Positions 9,449 through 61,960 are shown, counted from the stretch's first letter. The stretch: 64,000 bases of DNA from Minisyncoccota bacterium (GCA_035546575.1 DASZWN010000002.1:257056-321055), one strand, 5' to 3'. The notes: a model not told the origin generated them from the sequence alone. Numbers and translations are program-made.

Positions 9449-10492
9449 CTACCTCGAAGCGAGGAAACTTTCAATCAAACTCTCCACCTCCGCGGCGTTT
9501 TTTGCCTCCATTAATTGCATGCGCAGCTCTTTTGCGCCGTCAAAACCTTCGACATACGCTTTAAAGTGCTTTTTCATGATCGCAAAGTTTTTGATATCGC
9601 CTAACAGCTCTTCAAATAGCTTGGTGTGCTCTACAGCAATCTGAAGTCGAAATGCGTCCGGGAAAATAGTCTGGCCCGCAAGGGCGCCCCAAAGAGGGCG
9701 CCGCGAGACGGGAGACCCGAGGACTTTTTCTTGGGCGCTTTCGACGGAAGAAAAGAGCCACGGTTTGCCAAAAATCGCGCGCCCAAGCATGACGCCGTCG
9801 GCTCCACTCTCAGTCGCCTTCTTTCTTGCATCGGCAACATCGAGCGCATCGCCGTTGCCGATAATGAGCGTTTTGCTGCCCAACTCATTTCGGATCTCGA
9901 CGGCGCGCTTAACCCTCTCCCAATGCGCAGGCACGAGCGACATTTCTTTGCGCGTGCGAGCGTGGAGCGTAAGCGCCGCCGGCTCTGCAGCCAAAAGCTT
10001 TGGCAGCCACTCCTCCAAAATATCTTTGTTGTAACCTAAACGAGTTTTAACCGAAATCGGCAGGTTGGGCGCACCACGCTTGGCCGCTGCGATAAGCTCA
10101 ACCGCCCGCTCGGGGTTTAAAATGAGTTTTGCTCCCGCGCCTTGCTTTTCGATTGTTTTATCGGGGCAGCCCATGTTGATATCGATCCCGTCAAACCCAA
10201 GCTCTTGAGCGAGCGCCGCAGCATGCTCCATATGCTCGGGTGTGGCGGTAAAAAACTGCGCAACAATGGGCCGCTCGGCCTCGCTGTATAGCAAATCGCG
10301 CAGTAACTTGTTGCGGCCCTCTTCATGCGCCAACGCAAGTCCATCAGCAGAAACGAATTCGGTCCAAAAAACGTTGGGTCCTTCCGGCTTGCTGTACTTT
10401 GCGATAATACGGCGAAAAGCCGCGTCAGTGACGTTAGCTAAAGGCGCAAGCACAAAGAAAGGCCGCGGCAGAGAGTCCCAGAAATTTTTCAT
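9449..10492 (-). CDS. dus: tRNA-dihydrouridine synthase carrying an in-frame repeat-element insertion
   Basis: Dus TIM-barrel motifs (VLAPLANVTD, IDINMGCP); the C-terminal region contains translated element B (VLGSPVSRRPLWGALAGQTIF). Confidence 0.85.
   Translation of the reverse strand: MKNFWDSLPRPFFVLAPLANVTDAAFRRIIAKYSKPEGPNVFWTEFVSADGLALAHEEGRNKLLRDLLYSEAERPIVAQFFTATPEHMEHAAALAQELGFDGIDINMGCPDKTIEKQGAGAKLILNPERAVELIAAAKRGAPNLPISVKTRLGYNKDILEEWLPKLLAAEPAALTLHARTRKEMSLVPAHWERVKRAVEIRNELGSKTLIIGNGDALDVADARKKATESGADGVMLGRAIFGKPWLFSSVESAQEKVLGSPVSRRPLWGALAGQTIFPDAFRLQIAVEHTKLFEELLGDIKNFAIMKKHFKAYVEGFDGAKELRMQLMEAKNAAEVESLIESFLASR
9646..9744. repeat. MITE-like structured repeat element B, copy 1 (inside dus, translated in frame)
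   Basis: shares AAAATAGTCTGGCCCGCAAG-[hairpin]-GCGAGACGGGAGACCCGAGGACTTTTT with copies at about 49230 and 61410; flanked by the inverted repeat GTCGAAATGCG/CGCTTTCGAC. Confidence 0.75.
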
Positions 10493-10501
10493 ATACTCAC
10501 C

Positions 10502-11317
10502 CTACTGGTTTTTCAACTTGTAGTACAGCTTGTCGCCAAAGCGCAGATCGAGATACTCAAATTGCGAGAGGTCGTGGGTTGTAAACGGATCGGCAGTGAG
10601 GGCTAACCTAAAGCGCTCCAGCACGTCGGCGGTATCGTCTTTAAGCGCAAACATGAGTGCAAATCCGTTTGCAAATCGCATGGTTGCAGCAGTATCACTC
10701 ACCGAGACGCTCGCTACGGCAACCTTTGCCTGCTGCGCTGCAGCGGCGGCAAACGCGGCAAGCGAGCGAAATTGCTCGGGATTCAAAAATTGTTTTGGCT
10801 GGCTATTGGTCGTGCTACCAAAGTATTTTACATATACCTCTCCGGAAAAATCTGCCGCAGGAGCATAGACAACACCTACAGCATCGAGTAAGAAACAGGG
10901 TGACGGCGTAGTGGTTGATTCTCCGCACCACAGCGCATGCGGCCCGCGCTCAACAATATCTATGCGCAGATTTGTAAAATCCTGCACTTTGAGCGAGACG
11001 CTTTCAAAAACCGGAAATTGTTTTGTGAGTTGCGCTTGTACTTGGTCGCGCGGATAAAAAAGCGCATTATCTTTTGCAAACACTAAGCCATAAGTACCTC
11101 CGATCTCCTCACGCACCATGATCTCAATCGTGCTTGTCCCGACAGACGAGGCGCCTACTATCTCGATCGTCTGGATACGCAGAAATGGCGCCCAAGAGAG
11201 TGCAGTCGCCCCTGCTGCCAAAACCAACAGTAAAAACACGGCCACAGAAATAAGTACCATGCGTCGCTTACGCCGACGCGCTTTAAGCTTTGATTGCGGC
11301 AGTACGACCCGAGCCAT
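10502..11317 (-). CDS. ftsQ: cell division protein FtsQ/DivIB-like
   Basis: basic N-terminus, TM, POTRA-like IQTIEIVG; sits in a division/cell-wall gene context. Confidence 0.6.
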   Translation of the reverse strand: MARVVLPQSKLKARRRKRRMVLISVAVFLLLVLAAGATALSWAPFLRIQTIEIVGASSVGTSTIEIMVREEIGGTYGLVFAKDNALFYPRDQVQAQLTKQFPVFESVSLKVQDFTNLRIDIVERGPHALWCGESTTTPSPCFLLDAVGVVYAPAADFSGEVYVKYFGSTTNSQPKQFLNPEQFRSLAAFAAAAAQQAKVAVASVSVSDTAATMRFANGFALMFALKDDTADVLERFRLALTADPFTTHDLSQFEYLDLRFGDKLYYKLKNQ

Positions 11318-11321
11318 AGTA

Positions 11322-12608: not shown

Positions 12609-12633
12609 ATGTTTCTGATACCCATAGCGTACA

Positions 12634-13518: not shown

Positions 13519-15756
13519 ATGAAGTTGGTGATCGTTGAGTCGCCCGCTAAGGCGAAGACTATTGAGAAGTACCTTAACGATATTGTTAAGGATGGGCGCC
13601 TGCCTGCCGGTAGGCAGGACTTTGTCGTGCGCGCCTCGGTGGGCCATGTCCGCGATCTTCCGAAGTCTAATAAAAAAGCGATCGATATTCCTGCCGGCTT
13701 TGTGCCGCACTACGAGGTTGTGGCAGGCAAGATGAAGGTGATCGACGAGTTAAAAACGCTCGCTAAAAAAGCCGACGAGGTAATACTCGCGACCGACCCC
13801 GACCGCGAGGGCGAGGCTATTGCCTGGCACATTGGCCAGGAACTCAAGCTCAAAAAGCCGGAGCGCATCGTGTTCCACGAGATCACCAAAGAGGCTATCG
13901 CCGAGGCGCTTGCTAACCCGCGTCAGATCGACGAGCACTTGCGTTATGCACAAGAGGCACGCCGCGTGCTCGACCGCCTGGTGGGCTACGACCTCTCGGG
14001 GCTTATCTGGAAGAAGGTTCGATACGGGCTCTCCGCAGGGCGCGTACAATCGCCGGCTTTGCGCATCATTATGGAGCGCGAGCGCGAGATCCGCGCATTT
14101 ATCCCTGAGACCTACTGGGTTATTACCGCACAGACCCAGACCGAGCATAAAGATGCACTCAACCTCACCTGTGTTGAGGAGCCGCGCGACAAAAAACAAG
14201 TCGACCATATTATCGAGGCGGTTAAAAAAGACGGGCTTACTGTCGCCGACGTAACCGAGAGCGAAATGAAGCGGGCTCCAAGAGCGCCATTTACCACCTC
14301 CACCCTCCAGCAGGCGGCATCAACGCGCCTTGGCTTCTCCCCCTCCAACACCATGCGTATTGCGCAAAAACTCTACGAAGCCGGCCACATTACCTACATG
14401 CGCACCGACTCGGTAAACCTTGGCGCTCCTGCACGCGCAGCACTGCTTGCTCATGTTGAGAAAAAGTACGGCAAAGAGTACGTGCAGCCGCATACATTTG
14501 CGACAAAATCTAAAAATGCGCAGGAGGCTCATGAAGCAGTGCGCCCGACTCATATAGAAAAGGAGTCGGTTGGCACAACGCCCGAACAAAAGAAGCTCTA
14601 TGAGCTGATTTGGGCCCGCACGCTCGCATCGCAAATGGCTGATGCAAAACTGCTCAAGACAAAAATAATTGCCGAGACAAAAGATGCAAAGGTTCCGCAA
14701 TTTGCAGCCAATGGATCGCGCGTGATGTTTGACGGCTGGCTGCGTGCCGACCCTGCAGCACGCGGCGAAGATGTCGAGCTGCCAAAAGTCTCTCCAAAAG
14801 AAACACTCGATGTTAAAGATGTTTCTGCGGAGGAAAAGGCTACCACCCCACCGCAGCGCTACTCCGAGGCCGGGCTGATCAAAGAGCTCGAGAAGCGCGG
14901 TATCGGCCGGCCGTCAACGTACGCAAGCATCATGAAGACGCTCCAAGACCGCGGCTACGTACTCAAGGAAGGGCGCTCGCTAATACCTACCGACACCGGC
15001 GATGTGGTCTCAACATTCCTTGAAGACAACTTCCCTACCTATATCTCGGATACGTTTACTGCAGAGATGGAAGACGAGCTCGACGAAATTGCTCTTGGCA
15101 AACGCGAGTATGCAAAGACGCTCGGCGACTTCTATACCCCGTTTCTTAAAGACGTAAAACTCAAAGACAAAGAAGCCGGTAAGATTACCGATCTGGGGCC
15201 GGCACCAAAAGAGTATACCTGCCCCATATGCGGCAGCCCGATGGTGTTTAAGCTCTCTCGCCAGGGCAAATTTATGTCTTGCTCGCGCTTCCCCGACTGT
15301 TTGGGTGCTCGTACAGAAACCGGCGAGGTAATCTCAAACGAGCCGCCAAAACCAATCGGCACGTATCCGGAAAATGGCGAACCTATTTATGTGCTCACCG
15401 GCCGCTTTGGCCCTTATGTGCAAGTTGGCGAAACTCCGACCGGCAAAGGCTCAAAGTCTAAAAACAAACCCAAACGCGGCTCAATTCCTAAAGAAAAAAT
15501 CCCTGAGGAGGTGACTCTCGAAGATGCGCTTAAATATTTGAGCCTCCCGCGTGTACTTGGCAAACATCCGGACACCGAAGAAACTATTACCGCCAACATC
15601 GGCCGCTTCGGTCCCTACATTGCGCACAACACCAAACCAAAGCCGGACTTCCGCTCGCTAAAAACCGACGACGTATATGCAATAACGCTTGAAAGAGCCC
15701 TCGAAATCTTAAGCGAAGAAAAGAAGCGCCGCGGGTTTACAAAGAAAGCAAAATAA
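13519..15756 (+). CDS. topA: DNA topoisomerase I, with an in-frame 20 bp palindrome (LPAGRQ) in the TOPRIM N-terminus
   Basis: KLVIVESPAKAKTIEKYL, SVGHVRDLP, C-terminal Zn ribbons. Confidence 0.95.
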   Translation: MKLVIVESPAKAKTIEKYLNDIVKDGRLPAGRQDFVVRASVGHVRDLPKSNKKAIDIPAGFVPHYEVVAGKMKVIDELKTLAKKADEVILATDPDREGEAIAWHIGQELKLKKPERIVFHEITKEAIAEALANPRQIDEHLRYAQEARRVLDRLVGYDLSGLIWKKVRYGLSAGRVQSPALRIIMEREREIRAFIPETYWVITAQTQTEHKDALNLTCVEEPRDKKQVDHIIEAVKKDGLTVADVTESEMKRAPRAPFTTSTLQQAASTRLGFSPSNTMRIAQKLYEAGHITYMRTDSVNLGAPARAALLAHVEKKYGKEYVQPHTFATKSKNAQEAHEAVRPTHIEKESVGTTPEQKKLYELIWARTLASQMADAKLLKTKIIAETKDAKVPQFAANGSRVMFDGWLRADPAARGEDVELPKVSPKETLDVKDVSAEEKATTPPQRYSEAGLIKELEKRGIGRPSTYASIMKTLQDRGYVLKEGRSLIPTDTGDVVSTFLEDNFPTYISDTFTAEMEDELDEIALGKREYAKTLGDFYTPFLKDVKLKDKEAGKITDLGPAPKEYTCPICGSPMVFKLSRQGKFMSCSRFPDCLGARTETGEVISNEPPKPIGTYPENGEPIYVLTGRFGPYVQVGETPTGKGSKSKNKPKRGSIPKEKIPEEVTLEDALKYLSLPRVLGKHPDTEETITANIGRFGPYIAHNTKPKPDFRSLKTDDVYAITLERALEILSEEKKRRGFTKKAK
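13599..13618. repeat. 20 bp palindromic element A (CCTGCCTGCCGGTAGGCAGG), in frame in topA
   Basis: identical or near-identical copies at 19515, 21599, 42963, 45769, 47486 (21 bp variant), 49072 and 52984. Confidence 0.9.
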
Positions 15757-19499: not shown

Positions 19500-19558
19500 G
19501 CCGGAGTGGCGGAACCTGCCTGCCGGCAGGCAGGTTGGTATACGCGCACGACTCAAAA
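19500..19558 (+). repeat. duplicated 5' half of tRNA-Leu(CAA) (nt 1-38), interrupted by the 20 bp palindrome A
   Basis: GCCGGAGTGGCGGAA-[CCTGCCTGCCGGCAGGCAGG]-TTGGTATACGCGCACGACTCAAAA is identical to 19803-19843 apart from the insertion. Confidence 0.85.
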
Positions 19559-19568
19559 GAGACGATGT

Positions 19569-19802: not shown

Positions 19803-19884
19803 GCCGGAGTGGCGGAATTGGTATACGCGCACGACTCAAAATCGTGTCTCGCAAGGGATGGGAGTTCGACTCTCCCCTCCGGCA
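19803..19884 (+). tRNA. tRNA-Leu(CAA)
   Basis: long variable arm, anticodon loop CTCAAAA, T-loop GTTCGACTC. Confidence 0.8.
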
Positions 19885-21425: not shown

Positions 21426-21509
21426 AAAAAGCTTAGGAAGAGCTGTTGCGCTTCGCCCATACAGGGCGGAGCGCTTTCTTTTTATACATACATTCGCTAG
21501 ATTGAAGCC

Positions 21510-22418
21510 GTGCACAAGCCAAAAATCATCGCTATCGTTGGTCCTACCGCCTCGGGCAAGTCTGCCCTTGGTATTTTTCTCGCGCAAAAGCTCAGGCGCC
21601 TGCCTGCCGGTAGGCAGGGCGAGATCATCTCTGCCGATTCTCGGCAGGTATACAAAGGCCTCGATATAGGGACCGGCAAAGTAACCAAAAAAGAGATGGC
21701 TGGTATTTCCCACCACCTGCTTGATGTGGCCTCACCTAAAAAAGTATTTACTGTCGACGACTTTATAAAAAAAGCCTCTGCTACAATCACTACCATATAT
21801 GGTAGTGGCCATACGCCGATTATTGTGGGTGGTACCGGCTTGTATATCGATGCGCTTCTGGGCCGCATAAGCATCCCCAGCGTACCGCCCAACGAAGAGC
21901 TACGTACGCAGCTGGAGAAAAAGAGTGCTACTACGCTATTGAAAATACTCCAAAGACTCGACCCCGAGCGCGCTGAAACAGTCGACCAAAAAAACCCTCG
22001 CAGGCTTGTCCGCGCTATCGAGATAGCCAGGGCAATCGGCAAAACTCCGCCCAAAAAAATCGAGGAAAAGTACGAGATCCTATGGCTCGGCCTGAATCCG
22101 TCTGACCAGGTACTCAAGAAAAATATCCATACTCGCCTGCTTGTCCGCATGAAATTAGGAATGGTCGCCGAAGCTAAACGACTTCACGCACAAGGCCTTT
22201 CCTACAAACGCATGCGGGAGCTCGGGCTCGAGTATCGATATCTTGCAATGTACTTGCAAGATACATTAACTAGAGGCGATTTTGAAATACAGCTTGAGCG
22301 CGCCATCTGGCACTACGCCAAACGCCAGCGCACTTGGTTTAAGCGCAATCAAGAGATCCATTGGATAAAAAACAAAACAGAAGCCCTACGGCTAGCAAAA
22401 GGCTTCCTTTCACGCTAA
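21510..22418 (+). CDS. miaA: tRNA dimethylallyltransferase (GTG start), with an in-frame palindrome A (RRLPAGRQ) after the P-loop region
   Basis: IIAIVGPTASGKS ... ISADSRQVYKGLDIGTGK. Confidence 0.9.
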   Translation: MHKPKIIAIVGPTASGKSALGIFLAQKLRRLPAGRQGEIISADSRQVYKGLDIGTGKVTKKEMAGISHHLLDVASPKKVFTVDDFIKKASATITTIYGSGHTPIIVGGTGLYIDALLGRISIPSVPPNEELRTQLEKKSATTLLKILQRLDPERAETVDQKNPRRLVRAIEIARAIGKTPPKKIEEKYEILWLGLNPSDQVLKKNIHTRLLVRMKLGMVAEAKRLHAQGLSYKRMRELGLEYRYLAMYLQDTLTRGDFEIQLERAIWHYAKRQRTWFKRNQEIHWIKNKTEALRLAKGFLSR

Positions 22419-34034: not shown

Positions 34035-34168
34035 TTTTGTGCGAGGCGCAGCCTTATCCCGCATTGGCGGGATGGCGAGCCGGGGTCGCGAGCGAATTCT
34101 GCGACGGCAGAATTCGACTTGTGACCACTCGTGCGAGGAGGTTCATTTCAGAGTAGAATGCGGTAATT

Positions 34169-42347: not shown

Positions 42348-44846
42348 CTATAAGCAGACAAAGCTTGCTATTGCATCCCCGTCGCGGAGCTTCATTATGC
42401 GTACGCCTTGGGTTGAACGGCTGAGAGATGGGATTTCTACAAGGCCGGTGCGGATCACTTGGCCTTTTTTGGACATTACTACCATCTCGTCTTCGCCTAC
42501 GCCTTCTTCTTTAGACACTACTCTTGCGGCAACAAGCGGGCCTGTTTTTGGAGTCACCTTTACCGTCTTGATGCCCGAGCCGCCGCGGTTTTGTGTTTTA
42601 TATTCCGAGACCGGAGTTGTCTTGCCGTAGCCGTTGCGCGAGACAACAAGCACTTCGAGGTCCTTGCGGCCCTTGGGCACCACATCGGCGCCCACGATGG
42701 TGTCGCCGCCCGATAGCTTCATGCCGCGCACGCCGCCGGCACCGCGACCCATCGCGCGAATGTCGCTTTCTTTAAACCGGATCGACTGCCCTTTTGCCGA
42801 GGAGAGGAATATCTCGTCGCCCTTTTCCACAAGCAGTGCCGCAATGAGCTCGTCGCCCTTTTGGAGCTTGATAGCGATGAGGCCGCTGCGGCGCACATCG
42901 TGGAAACTTGCTGCATCTACCTTCTTAGCGACACCCTGCTTGGTGATCATATAGAGGAACTCCTGCCTACCGGCAGGCAGGTCTCCCCTCCCTTTTTCTA
43001 CTTTACGCATCGGCAAAACGCTGGAGACCTTCTCGGTGTCGGTGAGTGAGAGGAAGTTAACTATCGCCTTGCCCTTGGTCGAGCGTTTGCCCTCCGGGAT
43101 ATCATAGAACTTGAGCTGGTACGCCTTGCCCACATCGGTAAAGAAGAGCAGGTCGCTATGGGTCGAGGTCGTGAGGAATGTCGTTACAAAGTCTTCCTCT
43201 TTTGTGTCGAGGTCTATCACGCCGACACCCCCGCGCTTTTGGCGGCGGAACTCGTCGGGGTTCGTGCGCTTTACGTAGCCGCCTTGGGTGAGCACGAGCA
43301 CAGCCTCCTCGTCGGGTACGAGGTCTTCGAGGTTGATCACTCCTGCGGCGCCCTTCATCACCTTGGTGTTGCGGTCGTCGCCGTACTTCTCGACGATTGT
43401 CTGGATCTCGGTCTTGATAACCGTCATCATCTTTTTCTCCGATGCCAAGAGCGAGGTAAGCTCCTCTATGAGCGCCTGAACCTCTTTCAATTCGTCCTCG
43501 ATCTTTTTGCGCTCAAGGTTTGCGAGCTTTTGGAGGCGCATCTCAAGAATAGCGGTAGCCTGGAGCTCGCTAAACTTGAACTTTTTCATCAGGTTGGCGT
43601 GCGCGTCCTGTACATCTTTCGATGCACGGATTGTTTTGATGATCTCGTCGATGATATCGAGCGCCTTTTTGAGGCCGAGCAAAATGTGCTCACGCGCCTG
43701 CGCGCCCTTAAGGTCAAACTCGGTGCGGCGGCGCACCACCTCCTGGCGATGCTTGATAAACTCTTGGAGAATCCCTTTGAGGCTGAGCGTTTGCGGCACG
43801 CCGTCTACCAGCACCACCATGTTGAAATGGAAGGTGTCCTCAAGCGCGGTGTGCTTGTAAAGATAGTTGAGCACCTTCTGCGGGTGTGCACCTTGTTTAA
43901 GCTCCACCACGACGCGGATGTCTTTGGTGGACTCGTCGCGCAGGCCGCGGATACCCTCGAGCTTTTTGTCGCGCACCAGGTCGGCGATGCGCATGATCAT
44001 GTCGGCCTTGTTAACACGATACGGGATAGAGGTAATCACAATCTGGAAGTTCCCCTTTTTGTCCTCGACAATCTCGGCTACGCCGCGCACCACAACGCCG
44101 CCTTTGCCGGTGGTGTAGGCATGCAATAGATCTTTTTTATTAAATGCGACTGCGCCAACCGGGAAGTCCGGCCCCGTGATGTGCTGCATCAGGTCCTCAA
44201 CCGTTGCGTCTTTGTTTTCTATCAAATGTATGAGCGCGTTTGAGACTTCGGTGAGGTTATGCGGCGGGATCGAGGTTGCCATGCCCACCGCGATGCCGAG
44301 CGTGCCGTTGAGCAAAATGTTTGGCACTGCGGCCGGCAACACCTCGGGCTCCTTAAGGCTGCCGTCGTAGTTGGGGCGCCAGTCGATGGTCTCCTTTTCG
44401 ATATCGCCCAGCAATTGTTCCGCCATGCGCGACATTTTTGCCTCGGTGTAGCGCATTGCCGCGGCCGAGTCGCCGTCGATAGAGCCAAAGTTACCTTGGC
44501 CGAGCACCAGCGGATAGCGCATCGAAAACTCTTGCGCCATTTTTACCATCGCGTCGTACACGGAAGCGTCGCCATGCGGGTGATACTTGCCGAGCACATC
44601 GCCCACCACCAGTGCCGACTTGCGGAAGCGCGCCGAGGGTGTGAGCCCCAAGCGATGCATGGTGTAGAGGATGCGACGGTGCACCGGCTTGAGTCCGTCG
44701 CGCACGTCGGGGAGCGCGCGATCGGTAATCACGCTCATTGCGTAGTCGATAAAGCTCTCGCGCATCTCAGCCGAGATGTTGCGACCTACGATGCCGGTGC
44801 CGCCGTCTGGTCGCGGTTCTTTTTTAATTTCGTCTTGATCAGCCAT
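42348..44846 (-). CDS. gyrA: DNA gyrase subunit A, with an in-frame palindrome A (GDLPAGRQE) in the C-terminal domain
   Basis: catalytic-Tyr region AAMRYTE, QRR loop; full length. Confidence 0.95.
42963..42982. repeat. palindrome A copy (inside gyrA)
   Basis: CCTGCCTACCGGCAGGCAGG. Confidence 0.9.
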
Positions 44847-45768: not shown

Positions 45769-45788
45769 CCTGCCTACCGGCAGGCAGG
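45769..45788. repeat. palindrome A copy (intergenic)
   Basis: CCTGCCTACCGGCAGGCAGG. Confidence 0.9.
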
Positions 45789-48631: not shown

Positions 48632-49204
48632 CTACTTTGAGTGTATCTGCATCATCGCGGCATCTACACCTTCTTTCAGGATTATTTCCAGCGCCTCGCT
48701 CACTACTTTTTTTGCTTTTTTGAGCTTTTCTTGCTCTGCGGGTTTAAATTTGCCGAGTACAAAGTCCACTATCTTCTCGGCATCAGGCCGCTTGAGCTTG
48801 CCCGAGGGAGTTGTAGGGCTGATCCCCACACGCACACGCACAAAGTCCTGCGTCTTGAGCGCTTTAATCACCGACTTAACGCCGTTATGGCCGCCTGCGC
48901 TGGAGCCAAACGAGATTTTGACTCTCCCCAGCGGCAAATCGAGCTCATCATGCACCACAATAAGCCTCTGCGCAGCGGCTTTAGAGGGCACCATCTTTTT
49001 TAAAGGGCCGCCAGAGTTGTTCATATATACATCGGGCGTTATAAGCGTGGCTTTAACGCCAAACAGGCTTCCCTGCCTACCGGCAGGCAGGCCTTTTTCG
49101 CCCTCTTTCTTCTCTATATCGCGCAAAAAGTCGCGACCGATGTTGTGGCGCGTGCCTACGTACTCTTCATCTGGATTTCCGAGGCCTGCTACTACCCATT
49201 GCAT
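48632..49204 (-). CDS. pth: peptidyl-tRNA hydrolase, with an in-frame palindrome A (KGLPAGRQGS)
   Basis: GLGNPDEEYVGTRHNIG, HDELDLPLG, GGHNG. Confidence 0.9.
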   Translation of the reverse strand: MQWVVAGLGNPDEEYVGTRHNIGRDFLRDIEKKEGEKGLPAGRQGSLFGVKATLITPDVYMNNSGGPLKKMVPSKAAAQRLIVVHDELDLPLGRVKISFGSSAGGHNGVKSVIKALKTQDFVRVRVGISPTTPSGKLKRPDAEKIVDFVLGKFKPAEQEKLKKAKKVVSEALEIILKEGVDAAMMQIHSK

Positions 49205-49226
49205 GGCTCAAACTATAGCATATGGA

Positions 49227-49335
49227 GTCCGCAGCAAAAAAATGCACAAAAATAGTCTGGCCCGCAAGAATTCCGCGAAGACGGAATTGCGAGACGGGAG
49301 ACCCGAGGACTTTTTTAGGCGTTTTTTTGCTGCGG
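49227..49335. repeat. element B copy 2 (intergenic, between divergent pth and lepB)
   Basis: AAAAATAGTCTGGCCCGCAAG-GAATTCCGCGAAGACGGAATTGC-GAGACGGGAGACCCGAGGACTTTTTT, flanked by the 15 bp inverted repeat TCCGCAGCAAAAAAA/TTTTTTTGCTGCGGA. Confidence 0.8.
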
Positions 49336-49371
49336 ACTTGCATACCTACTTGCGGGGAGTACAATAGTTCC

Positions 49372-49929
49372 ATGCCACAGGAGAATCGTGATAACTTTTT
49401 CACCGAACTCCTGAAATTTGCTCTCATTGCCATCATCATTGTCGTCCCGCTGCGCATTTTTGTAGCAAAACCGTTCATTGTATCGGGTGCCTCGATGGAG
49501 CCAACGTTCGACACCGGCCAATACTTGATTGTCGACGAGCTCTCCTATCGTCTTGAGGCACCGCAGCGCCTCGATGTCGTTATTTTTAAGTATCCGCGCG
49601 ATACCTCGCAATATTTCATCAAACGTATCATCGGGCTGCCTGGCGAAACCGTGATCATCTCCGGCGGGCAAGTATCTATCAAGACAGCAGACGGTAAAAC
49701 AGTAGCGCTCAGCGAGCCGTACATTAAAAACCTTGGTAACGGCGGCGACATGCAGGTAACTCTCAAGACAGATGAGTACTTTGTGATGGGTGACAATCGG
49801 CCAGAGAGCTCCGACTCGCGCATTTGGGGAGTGCTCCCGCGCGCAGACATTGTTGGCCGCGCATTTTTGCGACTGCTCCCCGTCTCGACCCTTGGCGTAT
49901 TCCCCGGCAGCGCAACCGCACAGCAGTAA
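49372..49929 (+). CDS. lepB: signal peptidase I
   Basis: SGASMEPT (Ser box), KRIIGLPGE, GDNRPESSDSR; start re-derived at 49372. Confidence 0.85.
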   Translation: MPQENRDNFFTELLKFALIAIIIVVPLRIFVAKPFIVSGASMEPTFDTGQYLIVDELSYRLEAPQRLDVVIFKYPRDTSQYFIKRIIGLPGETVIISGGQVSIKTADGKTVALSEPYIKNLGNGGDMQVTLKTDEYFVMGDNRPESSDSRIWGVLPRADIVGRAFLRLLPVSTLGVFPGSATAQQ

Positions 49930-52983: not shown

Positions 52984-53003
52984 CCTGCCTGCCGGCAGGC
53001 AGG
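52984..53003. repeat. palindrome A copy (intergenic; extended 28 bp perfect palindrome AAACCCTGCCTGCCGGCAGGCAGGGTTT)
   Basis: read directly. Confidence 0.9.
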
Positions 53004-54358: not shown

Positions 54359-55116
54359 TGTGCTACCGGATCTTTCAGAAGATGCCAGGCATCTTCGTAC
54401 TGAAGAATATCAATTCGAGGAGCTGTCCCACCCCTTGCCTTCTTGCGCATGAGGCGGATGTTAACCATTGTCCTGACTTCTCCATTCGCAAACATACTCT
54501 TTTGGATCTGTTCGGTTGGAACGACAAAGAAGCGTACTGGATAATCAGGAATTAACACAAGAAAGATCGCGAATTTAACTTTAGCTACCGAAGACTTGAA
54601 GATTGCATATCGCGCGTATGCTTGGTTGCCTCGAACAACTCGGTGTTGCGTATTTGCATAAAAGAGTACGCACGAAATCCAATTTATTCGAAAGAAACGA
54701 GCCATCGGCAGCCATTCCGCGGCATGGTCCGAATACCAGGTCTTGTTACGGACAACGAAACCTTCTTTTTCTGCACGATTCTTAAGCGTTAGCACATATT
54801 CCCGTTGATTAGGCCCTTGTTCTGCTGCTTGCTTACGCCGATTGCGCTTGATAGCGGCCACGTGGAGCCGTCTCTCCATACCGCTACGATTGTCGCAAAA
54901 CGGTTTAAAAAGCAGGTAGAGATTTTCTATGTACCTCACAGAGACATGCATCTTCTGCGCTATCTCCACAAAAGAAAAGACTCCACGATACAGGAAGAAA
55001 AGCGTGTCAAAAAGACCGTGGACTTTCGTTCCTTTTCGAAATCGCCTTTCGTAAGCTTCCCTAGCCTTCCTCACCTCCGGATGATCAAGGGTGAAGTCTG
55101 GGATATTTTGACCCAT
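54340..55116 (-). CDS. hypothetical protein (258 aa), low-GC gene
   Basis: SD GAGAGGA upstream of the ATG at 55116; about 40% GC; the ORF-track extension to 55857 is read-through antisense to trxB. Confidence 0.45.
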   Translation of the reverse strand: MGQNIPDFTLDHPEVRKAREAYERRFRKGTKVHGLFDTLFFLYRGVFSFVEIAQKMHVSVRYIENLYLLFKPFCDNRSGMERRLHVAAIKRNRRKQAAEQGPNQREYVLTLKNRAEKEGFVVRNKTWYSDHAAEWLPMARFFRINWISCVLFYANTQHRVVRGNQAYARYAIFKSSVAKVKFAIFLVLIPDYPVRFFVVPTEQIQKSMFANGEVRTMVNIRLMRKKARGGTAPRIDILQYEDAWHLLKDPVAQEKTPT

Positions 55117-55185
55117 AGCTATCCTCTCTTGGCTTGTGTCGGTCCTTCTATTGGAGTTTTTAGCACAAAACGATATGCTATAGCA

Positions 55186-56232
55186 ATGTATGACCTTGCG
55201 ATTGTTGGTGGCGGCCCTGCGGGGGTTGCCGCTGGAGTATATGCCGCCCGCAAAAAACTCAAAACTGTTTTTATCGCAGAGCAGATAGGCGGCCAGAGCA
55301 TGGACTCGGTCGATATTCAAAACTGGATCGGCACGCAGCACATAAGCGGCATGGGGCTCGCCAAACAGCTCGAGATGCACCTGCATGCGTACGCGGCGGA
55401 TGTTGTCGACATGCACCTGGGCGAGCGCGCGCAAAAGGCGCAGAAGATTGATGGAGGATTTTCTATAACTACAGGCAAAGGCACCTACGATGCAAAGGCG
55501 CTCCTTGTCGCAACCGGCGGCATGCGCCGCAAGCTCGATATTTCTACTGCCGCACCATTTGAGAACAAGGGCCTCACCTACTGTGCCTCTTGCGATGGGC
55601 CGCTTTTCTCGGGCCAAGACGCAGTAGTAGTGGGCGGCGGCAACGCCGCGTTTGAGACTGCCGCCCAGCTTTTGGCCTACTGTAAAAGCGTCACGCTTAT
55701 CGCACGCAGCGACTTTGCTAAAGCAGATGCCGCAACGGTAGACGCGGTGCTCGCACACCCAAACATGAAGGCGCTTCAATACACGGTGCCGGTTGAGGTA
55801 AAAGGAGAGATGTTTGTCTCGGGACTTGTTGTAAAAAATACGCAGACAAACGAGCAAAGCGAGTTGCCGGTAGCTGGTATTTTTGTCGAGATAGGTATGT
55901 TGCCATCAACCGATTGGGTAAAAGACCTCGTAAAACTAGATGAGTATGCTCGCGTGGTAGTGGATGCAAGAAATCAGCGCACATATGGAGTTGTAACTCC
56001 AAAAAATTCTTCGGATGCAAGGCGCGGGGAAAGCGGAGAGGGAGACGTACTGAATGGTGCGGCGACCGAGACGCAGGAGCCCCGCAACGCCGCAGCCGGT
56101 GAATTTTTTGGAGTTTGGGCTGCGGGCGATTGTACTGATGAGTTATATCACCAGAACAACATCGCCGCAGGCGATGCCGTAAAGGCGCTTGAGGATATCT
56201 ACTACTGGGTTAAGCAGCAAAAAAGTAAATAA
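55186..56232 (+). CDS. trxB: thioredoxin-disulfide reductase
   Basis: FAD motif IVGGGPAG, redox CASCDG, NADPH motif VVGGGNAA; low-complexity insertion near the C-terminus. Confidence 0.85.
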   Translation: MYDLAIVGGGPAGVAAGVYAARKKLKTVFIAEQIGGQSMDSVDIQNWIGTQHISGMGLAKQLEMHLHAYAADVVDMHLGERAQKAQKIDGGFSITTGKGTYDAKALLVATGGMRRKLDISTAAPFENKGLTYCASCDGPLFSGQDAVVVGGGNAAFETAAQLLAYCKSVTLIARSDFAKADAATVDAVLAHPNMKALQYTVPVEVKGEMFVSGLVVKNTQTNEQSELPVAGIFVEIGMLPSTDWVKDLVKLDEYARVVVDARNQRTYGVVTPKNSSDARRGESGEGDVLNGAATETQEPRNAAAGEFFGVWAAGDCTDELYHQNNIAAGDAVKALEDIYYWVKQQKSK

Positions 56233-56319
56233 AATAAAAAATCTAGGTGGGGGCGTGCCGTTTCGCGAAGCGAAATGGGGCTAAGGATTTTTTATTTTAT
56301 TTACTTTTTTGCCGGGCTT

Positions 56320-57564: not shown

Positions 57565-57853
57565 TACACACGAGCACCGGGAGTATCTTCCACAAGTTTT
57601 TGCTCTACCCTGGCCCACAACTCAAGAAGCGTGCGTGAGCCACAATAATTTTCTCGCCGTCGCAAAACTACCGGGAATCGGCTACAAGTCGAATTTTCTC
57701 GTCAGAAAATTCGCTCGCAGCCCCGACTCGCGGCCGTGCAAGTGCACGGCAACGCTCCGTCTTTCGATTCCCGGCCGCAAGCAACTCAAGTTGCTTGCTT
57801 AGGGTCAGCGTGCGAAAAAGGCCGCCCTATTGGCGGCATCTTTTTCTGTGCGC

Positions 57854-59211: not shown

Positions 59212-59224
59212 CGTTTCTTTAAAA

Positions 59225-59254: not shown

Positions 59255-59270
59255 TCGTCGTATCACAGCT

Positions 59271-59912
59271 ATGAGAGAGAAAGTCCTTATTGCAACGGTA
59301 GGTATTGTGACGCTGGCGGCAGCGGGGGTGTTTGCCTCTACCTTTGCGCATGCAATGTGGTACTCCTCTCCAGACGACATCGAGGTTGCGGCCAGTCCAA
59401 CTGTTTGGGGCGATGCCGCCTCAGCCACCGCAACCTCAACAACCGGTAGCTATGTGCTGCGCGACTCGGGTATGCGTTTGAGGATCCCCGCTATTGCGCT
59501 TGATGCTCGCGTGCAGAGTGTCGGTGTTTCCAAAAGCGGCAATATGGCGGTGCCGACCAATTACACCGACGTGGGCTGGTATCGAGGCGGAACCAAGCCG
59601 GGCGATATCGGTAGCGCTGTGATTAACGGACACGTGGATAATGGATTTGGGTTACCAGCAGTGTTTCGCCATCTGACTGACCTTTCAGTTGGCAGCGATA
59701 TTTTTATAGAAACAGCCGGGGGCAAAGAGCTCCATTTTGTAGTAACCGACATAGAGACATATGCCGCGAGCGATGTGCCGCTCGACGAGCTCTTCAACCG
59801 CAGCGATACAGCAAGGCTTAATCTGATAACCTGTGCCGGAGAATGGCTACCCGACAGGCAGGCCTACGACCACCGCACAGTCGTATATAGCGAGCTCATG
59901 AATGACAACTGA
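59271..59912 (+). CDS. sortase (transpeptidase)
   Basis: N-terminal TM, His in VINGHVD, catalytic LITCAG (TLxTC) motif, conserved Arg downstream. Confidence 0.8.
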   Translation: MREKVLIATVGIVTLAAAGVFASTFAHAMWYSSPDDIEVAASPTVWGDAASATATSTTGSYVLRDSGMRLRIPAIALDARVQSVGVSKSGNMAVPTNYTDVGWYRGGTKPGDIGSAVINGHVDNGFGLPAVFRHLTDLSVGSDIFIETAGGKELHFVVTDIETYAASDVPLDELFNRSDTARLNLITCAGEWLPDRQAYDHRTVVYSELMNDN

Positions 59913-59939
59913 GCACTTTTTTGCTATCGTTTCTTCGAC

Positions 59940-60015
59940 GCGCGGTTAGCTCAGTTGGTAGAGCGTCCCCTTGACGTGGGGAAGGTCACAGGTTCGATCC
60001 CTGTATCGCGCACCA
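59940..60015 (+). tRNA. tRNA-Val(GAC)
   Basis: anticodon loop TTGACGT; CCA encoded. Confidence 0.8.
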
Positions 60016-60794
60016 TGAAACTGGTGTCGCTAAACGCATGGGGCGGGACTCAATTCAACCAGCTGCTTTCTTTTGTAGAAAAGCACGCAAACTCCACCGA
60101 CGTCTTTTGCTTTCAGGAAGTAGCGGTATCCGAGCGTATACAGAGCAAGGAAGAAAAACCTCGCCATAACTTATTGCGCGACTTATCTGAAGTGCTGCCT
60201 GGATTCCAGGTTATATATGCTCCATTTCAAGAAGGATTTAATTGGGAGCCTATAGAAAAAGATATTGCCTTGTGTAACGCAATGTTTGTTCGCAATGGTC
60301 TTAACATTCTTGAGCACGGCCATGTATTTGTGCACGGCGAAAAGAACGGTTTAGACTTTGCGCAGGCAGCAGAGGGCAACTGGTATACCATGCCTCGCCT
60401 GGTGCAGTTTACGCAGATAGATGGCTTCCCCACTATTTTTAACTTCCACGGTTTTTGGCATAAAGACGGCAAGCACGACACGCCCGAACGCATCAAACAG
60501 TCTGAGAAAATAGTCGAGGTTGTACAAAAGTTTAATAATCCGCGCATTTTGTGCGGAGACTTTAACCTCAATATCGATACCGAAAGTCTGGCTATGCTTG
60601 AAGACCGCGGCGGTCTGCGCAACTTAATCAAGGATCACAAAATTGGCACGACCCGCAGCGACCTGTATCCTAAAAAGTCGATCATGCCCTATGCCGACTA
60701 TATGTTTGTCTCGCCCGATATTACTATCAACTCCTTTTCGGTACCCGATGAGCCGGCATCCGACCATTTGCCCATGATCCTTGAATTCAAATGA
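60015..60794 (+). CDS. endonuclease/exonuclease/phosphatase (EEP) family protein; the start codon overlaps the last nt of the tRNA-Val CCA
   Basis: CGDFN and SDHLP motifs; ATG at 60015-60017. Confidence 0.75.
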   Translation: MKLVSLNAWGGTQFNQLLSFVEKHANSTDVFCFQEVAVSERIQSKEEKPRHNLLRDLSEVLPGFQVIYAPFQEGFNWEPIEKDIALCNAMFVRNGLNILEHGHVFVHGEKNGLDFAQAAEGNWYTMPRLVQFTQIDGFPTIFNFHGFWHKDGKHDTPERIKQSEKIVEVVQKFNNPRILCGDFNLNIDTESLAMLEDRGGLRNLIKDHKIGTTRSDLYPKKSIMPYADYMFVSPDITINSFSVPDEPASDHLPMILEFK

Positions 60795-61960
60795 AAATCC
60801 TGGCAATAGAGACCTCGTGCGACGAGACCGGCATTGCCCTGCTTGAGGGAGAAAAAACCTCTGGCGGCTTTGCATTCACCATTCTAAAAGACGTACTACT
60901 TTCGCAGGCACAGCTGCATGCTGAGTATGGCGGCGTCTTCCCTAACCTCGCCAAGCGCGAGCATCAGAAAAACCTCCCTATATTGTTTGAGCAGTTTAAA
61001 GACGAGAAGGTAGACGCAATTGCAGTAACTCACGGCCCAGGGCTTGAGCCGGCACTCTGGACTGGTATCGAGTTTGCTAAAAAACTAGCAGAAGAGTGGC
61101 AAGTACCACTTTTGCCTACCAACCACATGGAGGGGCATCTTATTTCCTCTTTAATAAAACATTCTCAAATTCTCGAGAATTTGAGAATAAGTGTTGGGAC
61201 ACTCTCTGGCATCAAGCTACCAGTTCTGGGGCTGCTCGTATCAGGCGGCCACACAGAGTTTGTGCTTATGAAAGAGTGGTTTGAGTACGAAATAATCGGC
61301 GAGACACTCGACGACGCCGTGGGCGAGGCATTCGACAAAGTTGCGCGTATGCTCGGCCTACCGTACCCGGGAGGCCCACACATCTCAAAACTCGCAGCAC
61401 AATCGCGCCTGCAGGCAGAAAATTCTGACAAAGGTCCTCGGGTCTCCCGTATCGCAATTCCGTCTTTGCGGAATTCTCTCGGGCCAGACCATTTGCCAGA
61501 ACATTCTGCCTTTCGGCTCCCCCGCCCTATGATCAATACAGACTCATGCGATGTTTCTTTCTCCGGCCTTAAGACCGCTGCGCTTTACATGCTGCGCGAC
61601 ATGGGCGGGATACAAACATTATCTGCAGACCAAGTAGCCGACTTTGCCCGCGAGTTTGAGGACGCGGTTGGAGATATCTTTTCTGCCAAAACGCTGCGGG
61701 CACTTGAGCAGACGAGTGCAAAAACATTTGTAATTGGTGGCGGTGTTGCAGCAAATAGTTATTTACGCGCGAAACTTGGCGCAGTGGTTGCAAAAGAGTT
61801 CCCTGAGGTTGAGTTTAAACTCCCTGAGCATGCAATAACCGGCGACAACGCAATCATGATTGGCGAAGCCGCGCTAGCCCGCCGCCTTAGTGGCCTCGAC
61901 GACTCTAAATTTGAAGAAATCCGCGCCCAAGGCCAACTCTCGATTTCATCGCAGAAATAA
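60791..61960 (+). CDS. tsaD: tRNA N6-adenosine threonylcarbamoyltransferase carrying an in-frame element B insertion
   Basis: MKILAIETSCDETGIAL...HMEGH; about 30 aa inserted between ...GGPHISKLA and ...FRLPRPM. Confidence 0.9.
   Translation: MKILAIETSCDETGIALLEGEKTSGGFAFTILKDVLLSQAQLHAEYGGVFPNLAKREHQKNLPILFEQFKDEKVDAIAVTHGPGLEPALWTGIEFAKKLAEEWQVPLLPTNHMEGHLISSLIKHSQILENLRISVGTLSGIKLPVLGLLVSGGHTEFVLMKEWFEYEIIGETLDDAVGEAFDKVARMLGLPYPGGPHISKLAAQSRLQAENSDKGPRVSRIAIPSLRNSLGPDHLPEHSAFRLPRPMINTDSCDVSFSGLKTAALYMLRDMGGIQTLSADQVADFAREFEDAVGDIFSAKTLRALEQTSAKTFVIGGGVAANSYLRAKLGAVVAKEFPEVEFKLPEHAITGDNAIMIGEAALARRLSGLDDSKFEEIRAQGQLSISSQK
61414..61510. repeat. element B copy 3 (inside tsaD, reverse orientation, translated in a different frame from copy 1)
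   Basis: the reverse complement matches AAATGGTCTGGCCCGAGAG-AATTCCGCAAAGACGGAATT-GCGATACGGGAGACCCGAGGAC; flanked by the inverted repeat GGCAGAAAATTCTGAC/GCCAGAACATTCTGCC. Confidence 0.8.

Follow-up and report, generated by a model that had tools for sequence, protein, structure and literature searches.

A hairpin repeat of CPR bacteria with a conserved core and locus-specific arms, and the case for inverted copying of the host flank

Here, we present an analysis of element B, a hairpin repeat of ultra-small CPR/Patescibacteria bacteria found three times in the window (the whole 64,000-nt stretch of DNA that was analyzed) and in 49 distinct copies when public genomes and metagenomes were scanned. 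We compared genes containing element B with orthologues lacking the insert; in four such comparisons, the orthologue has one arm of the hairpin, and the filled site has the core together with an inverted copy of that arm. Because one arm is native and the other is an inverted copy missing from the orthologue, the element appears to create the palindrome in which it lies. Our favored explanation, which we consider somewhat probable, is that element B is a small non-autonomous selfish hairpin repeat resembling the Rickettsia palindromic elements (RPEs) and accompanied by an inverted copy of the target flank beside its core.

Anatomy of element B in the window and across 49 copies

Using a core probe (GACGGGAGACCCGAGGAC, at most three mismatches), we found three matches in the window versus 0.06 expected, and a covariance model built from the 49 copies recovered these three only, with scores of 91.9 bits (copy 2), 84.0 bits (copy 1), and 79.7 bits (copy 3) (Table 1). 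Copy 3 has the opposite orientation to copies 1 and 2. The original prediction that a different inverted repeat flanks each copy is borne out, and all three flank pairs that it quoted are in place: GTCGAAATGCG from 9646 and CGCTTTCGAC up to 9745 for copy 1; TCCGCAGCAAAAAAA at 49228-49242 and its exact reverse complement at 49322-49336 for copy 2; and GGCAGAAAATTCTGAC at 61414-61429 and GCCAGAACATTCTGCC at 61495-61510 for copy 3. The arms are, however, somewhat longer than quoted, and A/T runs of 5-6 nt prolong the helix. Copies 1 and 3 are read through in open frames, the predicted Dus ORF peptide across copy 1 containing QEKVLGSPVSRRPLWGALAGQTIF and copy 3 within TsaD containing DKGPRVSRIAIPSLRNSLGPDHLPEHSA. 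Palindromes without the core also lie inside genes of the window, at 61161-61188 and in element A.

Table 1. Element B copies and neighboring genes in the window
Feature	Position	Strand	Remarks
Copy 1, whole hairpin unit	9646-9745	+	within Dus ORF of opposite strand, in frame
Copy 1, parts	left arm 9646-9662; core 9663-9729; right arm 9730-9745	+	core in repeat family D2
Copy 1, core	9663-9729	+	AAAATA GTCTGGCCCG CAAG-[GGGCGCCC CAAAGA GGGCGCC]-GCGAG ACGGGAGACCCGAGGAC TTTTT
Copy 2, whole hairpin unit	49226-49338	+	intergenic, divergent pth/lepB
Copy 2, parts	arms 49226-49248, 49316-49338; core 49249-49315	+	
Copy 3, whole hairpin unit	61413-61511	-	within tsaD, in frame
Copy 3, parts	arms 61413-61429, 61495-61511; core 61430-61494	-	
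Dus (tRNA-dihydrouridine synthase), host of copy 1, 347 aa	9449-10492	-	
tsaD, host of copy 3, 389 aa	60791-61960	+	
pth (peptidyl-tRNA hydrolase)	48632-49204	-	start codon ~22 nt from copy 2 left arm
lepB (signal peptidase I)	49372-49929	+	start MPQENRDNFF just right of copy 2

The 49 copies come from Paceibacteria (including Adlerbacteria) and Saccharibacteria, at densities of three per 64 kb in the window and up to two per 8-kb locus elsewhere. All 49 have the invariant core AAAATA-GTCTGGCCCG-(variable hairpin)-ACGGGAGACCCGAGGAC-TTTTT, of ~60-70 nt in a folded unit of ~100 bp, and all 49 have paired, locus-specific arms. Information per position is 2 bits in the core, an apparent conservation that is inflated by ascertainment because the scans demanded exact core matches, and 0.03-0.8 bit in the arms. 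Over 20 positions, there are 13.3 matches between a left arm and the reverse complement of the right arm of the same copy, versus 8.2 (the background level) when that right arm is read directly, 8.4 for the right arm of another copy, and a mean of 9.1 among the left arms of different copies. At loci L001, L002, L011, L016, L018, and L019 of a single genome (CAINNF), near-identical cores are flanked by unrelated arms of up to 26-27 bp, and the proximal arm bases are common to copies of one genome. The arms thus differ between copies as predicted, although not to the point of being wholly unrelated, since a weak consensus of 0.3-0.8 bit per position is present (GAAA at -16 to -19, pyrimidines at -10 to -14, GGG at +9 to +11, and TTTY at +15 to +18). 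Judged by arm information and arm-to-arm matches, the 49 aligned copies have locus-specific arms and share no single, consistent terminal inverted repeat, in agreement with the original prediction.

Native and copied arms at filled sites

The comparisons were L061/L062, L019/L059-L060, L027/window ORF 21501, and L001/L041, with window copy 1 as a partial case; the insert-lacking orthologues are 51-82% identical at the protein level and are not true pre-insertion alleles, and the loop alignments are uncertain by a few residues. The clearest case is recJ in L061 versus L062 (78% nucleotide identity), in which 69 nt are inserted beside the native AAAGAAATTCTTCC, a sequence that the new arm GGAAGAATTTCTT repeats in inverted form at 13 of 14 bases; the central base and the GG/CC ends show that the copy is inverted and not direct. 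L019 has 27-28 aa more than L059/L060, corresponding to the core plus one 24-nt arm, and its native arm encodes QQLLPRDA. L027 compared with window ORF 21501 and L001 compared with L041 argS gain 23 and 28 aa, respectively, with one native arm. In the window, the 27-28 aa gained with copy 3 correspond to the 65-nt core plus one 16-nt arm, while copy 1 has conserved R-L codons in the arm on the gene-downstream side. Dus orthologues without the insert are ~325 aa long versus 347 aa; the core by itself accounts for this net difference of 22 aa, implying that native residues were also lost or overwritten. The native arms carry conserved host codons (LPRD/KEILPE in RecJ, RL in Dus, and KV..GV in ArgS), and the native flank is 5' of the GTCTGG strand in four of the five informative cases, L061 being reversed.

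At the insert-lacking sites of L062, L059, L060, window ORF 21501, and L041 argS, there is no pre-existing palindrome, as the second arm is absent. The original prediction had left open whether the element inserts into palindromic target sites or creates them; the four comparisons support creation and speak against insertion. The inverted copy of the flank emerged from these comparisons, whereas no direct target-site duplication adjoins the element: flanks match inverted, not direct. Likewise, hairpin targeting as in IS200/IS605, which had been suggested, is unsupported because the empty sites lack a palindrome; moreover, across the copies we saw no fixed boundary motif or target tetranucleotide, and within flanks of up to 8 kb no transposase, HUH, integrase, reverse transcriptase, or other mobilizing gene linked to the element. 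When metagenomes were scanned for the 3' half-site by itself, 31 loci were recovered, all of them short forms, with no long autonomous form between the core halves in flanks of up to 8 kb. No recent presence/absence polymorphism was found among the compared loci.

The locus-specific outer stem is accounted for if one host flank was copied backwards beside the core, as it seemingly was. We infer that element B is mobile through a DNA or RNA intermediate, and that its mobile part would comprise the conserved core (A-run, GTCTGGCCCG, optional variable hairpin, ACGGGAGACCCGAGGAC, and T-run) and a few proximal bases, with the differing "terminal inverted repeats" staying behind at each locus. At insertion or soon after, ~13-25 nt of one host flank would be copied inverted across the core, which would place the core at the tip of a long locus-specific hairpin. 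The simplest route would be hairpin-primed snap-back synthesis, in which the 3' end, fresh from copying the self-complementary core, folds back and extends on its own upstream flank; arm complementarity may then be kept by the same within-strand templating or by selection for pairing. The inverted duplication of the target flank is best read as a new signature, one that mobile elements do not usually leave. Element B also occurs in degenerate and internally deleted forms, as expected of decaying selfish DNA. However, the core is identical across phyla, and also in orthologous copies whose host proteins are only ~70% identical, a degree of conservation beyond that expected of a decaying parasite, although part of it reflects ascertainment.

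Residence in protein loops, resident palindromes, and fold

Thirty-one of the 49 copies (~60%) are in frame within long ORFs, including those for TsaD, Dus, RecJ, ArgS, and MutY/Nth-like proteins, and the core is used there in all three frames and both orientations. The host genes are mostly housekeeping genes for tRNA, rRNA, and DNA metabolism; overall, the copies are in both orientations relative to genes, in coding loops, 5' regions, and intergenic regions, with no common gene context. The strand that is usually coding is stop-free in every frame and the unit length stays a multiple of three, which would let in-frame copies persist in essential proteins, within surface loops that tolerate them, and there they may be translated as disordered excursions. 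Consistently, residues 206-240 of TsaD have only four counterparts in E. coli TsaD, a four-residue turn being replaced by the insert, and in an AlphaFold2 model of TsaD (pTM 0.82) the insert (residues 213-236) has a pLDDT below 50; the element-encoded peptide is therefore predicted to form a disordered loop. An intron or intervening sequence is rejected, as all 31 intragenic copies keep the host frame without a stop codon. Loop lengths are bimodal among orthologues. The same loops have accumulated several palindrome families unrelated to one another.

Among the alternatives, it is conceivable, although we regard it as unlikely, that the element B core enters resident hairpins, or replaces their centers, by structure-specific single-strand recombination directed at palindromes or hairpin tips, in the spirit of IS200/IS605, integron attC, and IS1111; the resident palindromes would have been left by earlier elements or would be terminators or short coding palindromes. 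Consistent with this idea, cores that differ in orientation, reading frame, and family occupy the same loops in 30-58% of orthologues, which suggests site preference or core replacement and not random insertion filtered by selection. In TsaD, Dus, RecJ, a MutY/Nth-like protein, and two ~820-aa proteins, the same loop has different element B orientations or frames, or other centers, depending on the genome. Moreover, copy 2 and its orthologous copy in L004 have homologous arms and a different inner hairpin, and the orthologous sites of L039/L040/L046 likewise combine homologous arms with non-homologous inner hairpins. In L020, the empty TsaD site forms a 9/12 quasi-palindrome, matched by none of 101 background windows, and the empty Dus site in L056 has a perfect GAGAATTCTC at the insertion point. 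The core-less palindromes in genes of the window, a two- to threefold enrichment of self-palindromic AGAAnTTCT-like motifs in the arms, and conserved unpaired bases on one side of the stem fit as well. However, the second arm is missing from the insert-lacking orthologue in the four cleanest comparisons, a short native palindrome in L061/L062 is intact beside the core and not split by it, and L056, L057, L059, and L060 are no more palindromic than background. In addition, no Y1/HUH enzyme, integrase, target tetranucleotide, or long form was seen in flanks of up to 8 kb, and the source of the first palindrome is left unexplained. Still, a weaker form of targeting may operate, given the loops hit repeatedly by different cores and the quasi-palindromic L020 and L056 sites, so that some resident palindromes may have been re-targeted.

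A second alternative, in our judgment quite unlikely, is that element B is a structured nucleic-acid motif selected by the host, such as a protein-binding site, an antisense processing or termination signal, or a genome-wide signal, with mobility being secondary. Each whole unit folds much better than shuffled sequence, with z scores of -5.3, -7.9, and -6.1 for copies 1, 2, and 3, respectively, and an energy of -58.1 kcal/mol for copy 1. In the 49 aligned copies, pairing amounts to 80.8% in the arm helix, with two-sided changes at all 13 pairs; the structure as a whole has 90.3% of its cells paired versus 77.0% in shuffles, a value reached by none of 500 shuffles, and sliding the partners lowers pairing to at most 62%. 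Arm pairs covary between orthologous copies (window copy 3 versus L022, and L039/L040/L046), in line with the favored explanation as well. The GTCTGG strand has the better fold in 43 of the 49 copies, by a mean of 7.4 kcal/mol and whichever strand bears the gene; G-U arm pairs number 141 on this strand versus 55 on the other, the antisense strand has a covariance score of 18.6 versus 91.9 bits, and the unpaired purines (GA, AGAC, and a bulged A) are conserved. A core invariant from Saccharibacteria to Paceibacteria in any reading frame, and the mostly housekeeping hosts, also agree with a selected motif. However, the arm covariation is expected from inverted duplication alone, exact-match scans inflate the conservation, orientations and positions are mixed, and many orthologous sites hold decayed or deleted versions of the element. 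In Rfam 15, only tRNAs reached the gathering score in the window, with no match to element B, and the best match in a permissive search (E = 0.052) was far under its gathering score. As for an intrinsic terminator, the T-run is not a free U-tract but is base-paired to the A-run within a longer helix, copy 2 was not called in a terminator scan, and most copies are within ORFs.

Finally, the first option of the original prediction, an element of ~100 bp with fast-diverging terminal inverted repeats, gave the size of the folded unit correctly but not the origin of the arms: that these are the element's own repeats, merely diverged, with pairing restored by compensatory mutation, would fit the weak arm consensus, the proximal bases common within a genome, and the covariation between orthologous copies, but is very improbable given that arms contain native codons present also in insert-lacking orthologues, are unrelated between near-identical cores (left arms 9.1/20), show a conservation gradient the reverse of that in MITEs (invariant center, variable ends), and lack direct target-site duplications, and that the half-site metagenome scan gave no autonomous relative.

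Returning to the favored explanation of a selfish repeat with an inverted copy of its flank, we tentatively extend it to the possibility that element B and its sister families represent an undescribed type of DNA mobility in CPR, in which a conserved hairpin, possibly released from host mRNAs, would be copied to DNA and integrated by snap-back, giving an inverted target-site duplication and palindromes that serve in core swapping. If so, resident palindromes would be landing pads at which cores are flipped, swapped, and renewed, and the system would be self-sustaining and remodel surface loops of essential proteins across a whole superphylum.

Comparison with known systems

RPEs, described by Ogata et al. 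(2000, 2002), are palindromic repeats of ~100-150 bp with many dispersed copies in a reduced-genome bacterium, a large share of them in frame in unrelated housekeeping genes and translated as fold-compatible extra segments, and no cognate transposase is known for them (summarized in PMC10969869). Element B is similarly a multi-copy palindrome of ~100 bp with frequent in-frame insertion in fold-compatible surface loops. However, it resides in CPR and is at most an analogue, likened by features and not by sequence; moreover, only its center is conserved, while its outer stem is built at each locus from the host flank. To our knowledge, inverted flank duplication has not been reported for RPEs. 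Long inverted repeats with both arms translated also occur in functional coding genes of Nematomorpha mitochondria; unlike element B, these repeats have conserved protein regions encoded in each arm and no mobile core in common (PMC6649704).

Bacterial MITEs (Correia/CREE, ERIC, Nezha, QMITE, and BOX/RUP/SPRITE) resemble element B in being small, non-coding, hairpin-forming, multi-copy, and sometimes intragenic. However, MITEs have conserved terminal repeats recognized by a transposase and direct target-site duplications, whereas in element B the ends vary, the middle is conserved, and the flank duplication is inverted.

IS200/IS605 elements with PATEs, as well as REP/REPIN-RAYT systems, use single-strand, hairpin-based HUH transposition, with conserved subterminal hairpins of their own and a fixed target of 4-5 nt; a palindromic target is neither needed nor made. 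Like them, element B folds as a single strand in which the stems are imperfect and unpaired bases are conserved, folds clearly better on one strand, and has no classical terminal inverted repeats or target-site duplications, but its outer stems are host-derived, and no TnpA, RAYT, fixed target, or long form was found in flanks of up to 8 kb. Integron attC sites are also recognized by structure; they have conserved ends (R/L boxes) and a variable center and bound gene cassettes instead of lying inside ORFs. The variable yet always paired stems and the extrahelical bases that mark one strand recall element B, which has the opposite layout (conserved center and variable ends) and is often in ORFs.

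In quasi-palindrome template switching, or snap-back synthesis, a nascent strand forms a hairpin and serves as its own template, making or perfecting inverted repeats. It is known as a mutational process or an in vitro artefact, and we know of no repeat family for which it is a regular integration signature. The same process would both create the arms of element B and keep them complementary.

Element B and its conserved core

All three pairs of inverted flanks quoted in the original prediction were found at their positions in the window, and they enclose a genuine repeat present in three copies. The 18-mer GACGGGAGACCCGAGGAC occurs three times in the window when up to 3 mismatches are allowed, compared with 0.06 occurrences expected. 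Copies 1 and 2 of this repeat, element B, align directly, and copy 3 aligns as the reverse complement (see the table). Each unit, comprising a central core and locus-specific outer inverted repeats (arms), folds as one long hairpin, with z scores of −5.3, −7.9, and −6.1 relative to shuffled sequence. With a covariance model, exactly these three copies were detected in the window (92, 84, and 80 bits); the next-best score, 30 bits, belongs to a different palindrome. Using two core-pattern scans, one of GTDB genomes and one of JGI metagenomes, we identified 49 distinct copies in Candidatus Adlerbacteria, other Paceibacteria/Parcubacteria, and Saccharibacteria; the scans demanded exact core matches, which inflates core conservation and misses diverged copies, and all sequences compared are MAGs or metagenome contigs. 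The Dus protein of the window is 100% identical to one in an NCBI "Candidatus Paceibacterota" MAG.

On one strand, all copies share the same layout, i.e., the left arm, AAAATA, GTCTGGCCCG, a variable hairpin of 0–35 nt, (G)A(N)ACGGGAGACCCGAGGAC, TTTTT, and the right arm. The inner hairpin is optional, with five copies carrying just GTCTGGCCCGACCCAGACGGGAGACCCGAGGAC. The consensus fold has four parts, starting from the outside with the arm helix and the A-run/T-run helix, followed by the core pairings, in which AGUCU pairs with GGACU via an invariant U-G, GG with CC, and CCCG with CGGG. The 3′ strand of this fold holds all invariant unpaired positions (GA and AGAC) and the bulged A, and the base following CCCG and the one preceding ACGGG covary (C-G or A-U). 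In the 49-copy alignment, 90.3% of the cells are paired, compared with 77.0% in shuffles (none of 500 reached the observed value) and at most 62% with slid partners, and changes on both sides were found in 13 of 13 arm pairs. The strand on which the core reads GTCTGG folds better in 43 of the 49 copies (mean difference, 7.4 kcal/mol) and has 141 G-U pairs in the arms versus 55 on the opposite strand; known deamination biases predict an asymmetry in the opposite direction. With the covariance model, the opposite strand of copy 2 scored only 18.6 bits. Rfam searches of the whole window at gathering thresholds and of copy 2 at permissive thresholds returned only tRNAs and no family for B. Comparison of the core by eye with hammerhead, twister, HDV-like, SRP, RNase P, and 23S rRNA fragment sequences gave nothing convincing and had no Rfam support, and a reading of copy 2 as a terminator was rejected.

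Long open reading frames hold 31 of the 49 copies, and these frames are unbroken. The gene strand is opposite to the GTCTGG strand in 23–26 of the intragenic copies and the same in 5. The core has no stop codon in any frame on the strand opposite GTCTGG, and all three frames are in use (KVLGSPV..., KSSGLPS..., and GPRVSR...), arguing that the constraint acts at the nucleotide level rather than at the peptide level. Based on the reading frames, we suggest that the B unit is translated and not spliced out. Residues 206–240 of the window TsaD correspond to 4 residues in E. coli TsaD (PDB 4wq5), and in an AlphaFold2 model (pTM 0.82), insert residues 213–236 have a pLDDT <50 and are thus predicted to form a disordered excursion.

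Repeats and palindromes in the window
Feature	Position	Context
Element B, copy 1	9646-9745	In frame within the tRNA-dihydrouridine synthase (Dus) gene
Element B, copy 2	49226-49338	Intergenic, between divergent pth and lepB
Element B, copy 3 (inverted)	61413-61511	In frame within tsaD
20-nt palindrome CCTGCCTRCCGGYAGGCAGG, 7 copies	13599-13618, 19515-19534, 21599-21618, 42962-42981, 45769-45788, 49072-49091, 52984-53003	
Perfect 28-nt palindrome ATTCTCAAATTCTCGAGAATTTGAGAAT, no core	61161-61188	Inside tsaD, same gene as copy 3
Unit with 24-nt arms and 73-nt structured centre	55995-56115	In frame in ORF 54805..56232
Unit with perfect 27-nt AT-rich arms and 42-nt GC-rich hairpin	56217-56312	Just after ORF 54805..56232
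Two-hairpin repeat, ~80 nt	34044-34122 (+), 57684-57762 (-)	Each copy adjoins a tRNA cluster
Perfect/near-perfect palindromes, 19-20 bp arms, AT-rich runs	3668-3705, 48594-48637	Gene ends, e.g., just downstream of pth

Origin of the arms

Three lines of evidence argue that the arms do not travel with the element. The core has an information content of 2 bits per position and the arms only 0.03–0.8, a conservation gradient that is the reverse of that of a transposon. Arms of different copies match at 8.4–9.1 of 20 positions, which is no better than chance, while a left arm matches its own right arm at 13.3 of 20 positions as the reverse complement and at only 8.2 of 20 when read directly. In seven copies from a single genome, CAINNF, the inner hairpins are nearly the same, the arms are unrelated between copies, and the two arms of a copy are often perfect over up to 26–27 bp.

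Comparisons of genes carrying the insert with "empty" orthologues, which are 51–82% identical at the protein level and are not pre-insertion alleles, bear on which arm is native. The recJ genes L061 (filled) and L062 (empty) share 78% nucleotide identity. The empty gene reads ...GAA GAG GGG AAA GAA ATT CTC CCG GAA..., and L061 has 69 extra bases directly upstream of AAA GAA ATT CTT CCG GAA. This insert opens with GGAAGAATTTCTT, which agrees at 13 of 14 positions with the native AAGAAATTCTTCC read as its reverse complement; the outer GG/CC and the central base (A versus T) show that the copy is inverted and not direct. Compared with the empty recJ genes L059 and L060, L019 has gained 27–28 aa, equalling a 59-nt core plus one 24-nt arm. 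Its gene-downstream arm encodes the native QQLLPRDA, of which LPRD is conserved in all orthologues; its upstream arm (ASEEAIAS) mirrors the downstream arm and has no counterpart in the empty genes. In a MiaA-like gene (L027 versus the window ORF at 21501; +23 aa), it is the gene-upstream arm that can be aligned with the native ...AAAACTCCGCCCAAAAAA, with the insert beginning directly after the native A-run. In argS (L001 versus L041; +28 aa), the gene-downstream arm aligns with the native KV.GVKKI. The gene-downstream arm of copy 1 holds the conserved R-L codons of RL.I..EH, and copy 3 has a net gain of 27–28 aa, the size of its 65-nt core and a single 16-nt arm together. The native arm could be told from its copy at just five sites, and in four of these the native flank lies 5′ of the core on the GTCTGG strand. 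These comparisons argue that the arms, at least distally, consist of host sequence and its inverted copy. The differences between L030 and its window orthologue, and between L013/L045 and theirs, are variable linkers or another insert.

The original prediction envisaged insertion into, or creation of, palindromic targets. The second part is borne out at sites lacking a second arm, and we suggest, from these alignments, that the element creates its palindrome at the insertion locus. Pre-existing palindromes do not hold as the primary explanation, and insertion into the centre of such a palindrome at copy 3 in tsaD would require an 83-nt insert that breaks the frame. Direct duplication of a palindromic target was rejected based on the central and outer bases in L061/L062 and on the inverted versus direct matches of the arms; any target-site duplication would instead be an inverted copy of the flank. 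Hairpin targeting by a single-strand, IS200/IS605-like transposon is not supported, as we found no fixed target motif, no subterminal hairpin belonging to the element, no transposase gene in the flanks of up to 8 kb examined, and no long form between core halves in the scans. Fast-diverging terminal inverted repeats of the element itself are contradicted by arms that derive from host flank and are unrelated between CAINNF copies with near-identical cores.

Insertion hot spots and a candidate integration route

The TsaD, Dus, and RecJ loops are insertion hot spots. Among the 115–119 closest orthologues, 30–58% have a palindrome-derived insert of 15–30 aa in the same loop; loop lengths are bimodal, exceeding the base length by >8 aa in 69 of 118, 63 of 119, and 34 of 115 orthologues, respectively. 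Besides B, present in either orientation, the inserts include at least eight further peptide families, and some of these families are found at more than one of the three sites. The net gain at the Dus site corresponds to just the core, arguing that some native residues were lost or overwritten. In the tsaD orthologue of L021 (10540-10670), the loop occupied by copy 3 has a different centre, AACCATCCCCTTGCAGACCTGCAGGGC (peptide HPLADLQGG), flanked by perfect 21-bp arms (AGCGGCAGAAGTGCTGTTTCC and GGAAACAGCACTTCTGCCGCT); this peptide family is also present in other TsaD orthologues and in L016.

Independent scan matches recur at one site in orthologous proteins, with the core in a different frame or orientation, and the arms at such sites are homologous and co-vary (L039/L040/L046; L008/L047/L042/L048; L002/L029/L033). 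The core lies in opposite orientations and in different reading frames at orthologous sites in L006/L047 versus L008, L042, and L048, in L039/L040 versus L046, and in L002/L033 versus L029, and insert length is constant despite the flipped core, e.g., 33 aa in both L047 and L008. This pattern suggests in situ inversion between the arms with compensating changes in A-run and T-run length. Copy 2 and L004 are clearly orthologous: each is located between pth and lepB, their arms are related, and their core halves are identical. Their inner hairpins are nevertheless quite different, and copy 2 has its inner hairpin in common with copy 3 of the window. These observations require that cores are flipped in situ, are replaced or converted, or re-insert at palindromes already resident at the site.

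Targeting may, therefore, have a second layer in which existing palindromes are preferred. The hot-spot loops and the homologous arms around changed cores are consistent with such a preference, as is motif enrichment: the arms are non-random with a weak consensus, and short self-palindromic AGAAnTTCT-like motifs are enriched 2–3 times in them, with similar motifs at three empty sites. However, this preference fails as the primary explanation at sites without a second arm, and L020 is the only empty site with significant palindromic character.

To explain how B could create its own palindrome, we infer, as a proposal, a snap-back step during integration. A self-complementary core at a 3′ end would fold back on itself and be extended on its own upstream strand, generating flank-core-rc(flank); repeated templating within the strand would cause the arms to evolve in a compensatory manner. 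Reverse transcriptases and DNA polymerases are known to carry out snap-back synthesis. This step would account for arms that vary in length (13–27 nt) and show compensatory evolution, for the net size of the insert, and for the 4:1 polarity. The donor could be DNA or RNA; in host mRNAs, most copies would be transcribed as the strand that ends in ...CCAGAC UAUUUU, and an A-rich target end could serve as the pairing partner for this 3′ end (compare L027). Searches for a long autonomous form with the 3′ half-site alone returned only short forms, and a 17-mer scan of viral contigs gave two matches, both lacking the 5′ half, which we attribute to chance. In L022, the closest relative of the window, a reverse-transcriptase gene fragment (RVT_1, YADD motif; L022:1249-1698, minus strand) lies directly downstream of tsaD, at the position of an aminoacyl-tRNA synthetase gene in the window, L020, and L021. 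Linkage of B to this fragment was rejected, as phmmer detected no homologue in the window or the other loci examined.

Other palindromes and relation to known elements

Several repeat families lie side by side in this single 64-kb window. The 20-nt palindrome is probably "element A" of the earlier reading; at least four copies, among them one inside pth, are in frame in long ORFs, reading LPAGRQ. The LPAGRQ motif also occurs within TsaD and Dus orthologue inserts (P0097 and P0220). The tRNA gene located at 19803-19884 has a duplicate of its 5′ half ~280 nt upstream (19500-19560), in which an element A palindrome is inserted after GCCGGAGTGGCGGAA, giving a split pseudo-tRNA or tRNA fragment. 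The 28-nt palindrome in tsaD encodes HSQILENLRIS, an ~11-aa insert with low pLDDT in the AlphaFold2 model that is common to many TsaD orthologues and absent from L020 and L021. The units with 24- and 27-nt arms look like sister families of B. The two-hairpin repeat reads GCG.GGCG.AGC-hairpin-GCGAG.CGGGG..GCGAGCGAATT...GAATTCGACTTGT, has compensatory differences in both stems, and matched nothing in Rfam at the gathering score; it could represent a further repeat family or a structured RNA that lacks annotation. The palindromes at gene ends look like bidirectional terminators unrelated to B.

No standard transposition scheme accommodates an invariant centre with an outer stem of inverted host flank. 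If inverted target duplication is the signature of integration, B would represent an unrecognised hairpin-primed or template-switch insertion route. B also offers a handle on how mobile elements persist in ~1-Mb genomes with few recognisable transposases, and because the same core is present in cultivable, naturally transformable Saccharibacteria, this question is testable. Moreover, palindromic inserts affect gene calling, protein-length statistics, orthology, and structure prediction in CPR genomes. For work on mobile DNA and on CPR genomics, B is clearly of interest to specialists; its mechanism is still a proposal.

In the literature searched, we found no earlier account of such elements in CPR/Patescibacteria. 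Protein-coding palindromic repeats have so far been treated as a Rickettsia curiosity; the analogous phenomenon in Patescibacteria, which also have reduced genomes, is apparently much more widespread. The nearest described phenomenon is the Rickettsia palindromic elements, selfish palindromic repeats that lie in frame in housekeeping genes and are translated (PMC10969869, citing Ogata 2000, 2002). B resembles these elements in the functional features compared and is probably not a member of the family by sequence; it differs in having an invariant centre, an outer stem that derives from the host flank, and several families stacked in the same loops.
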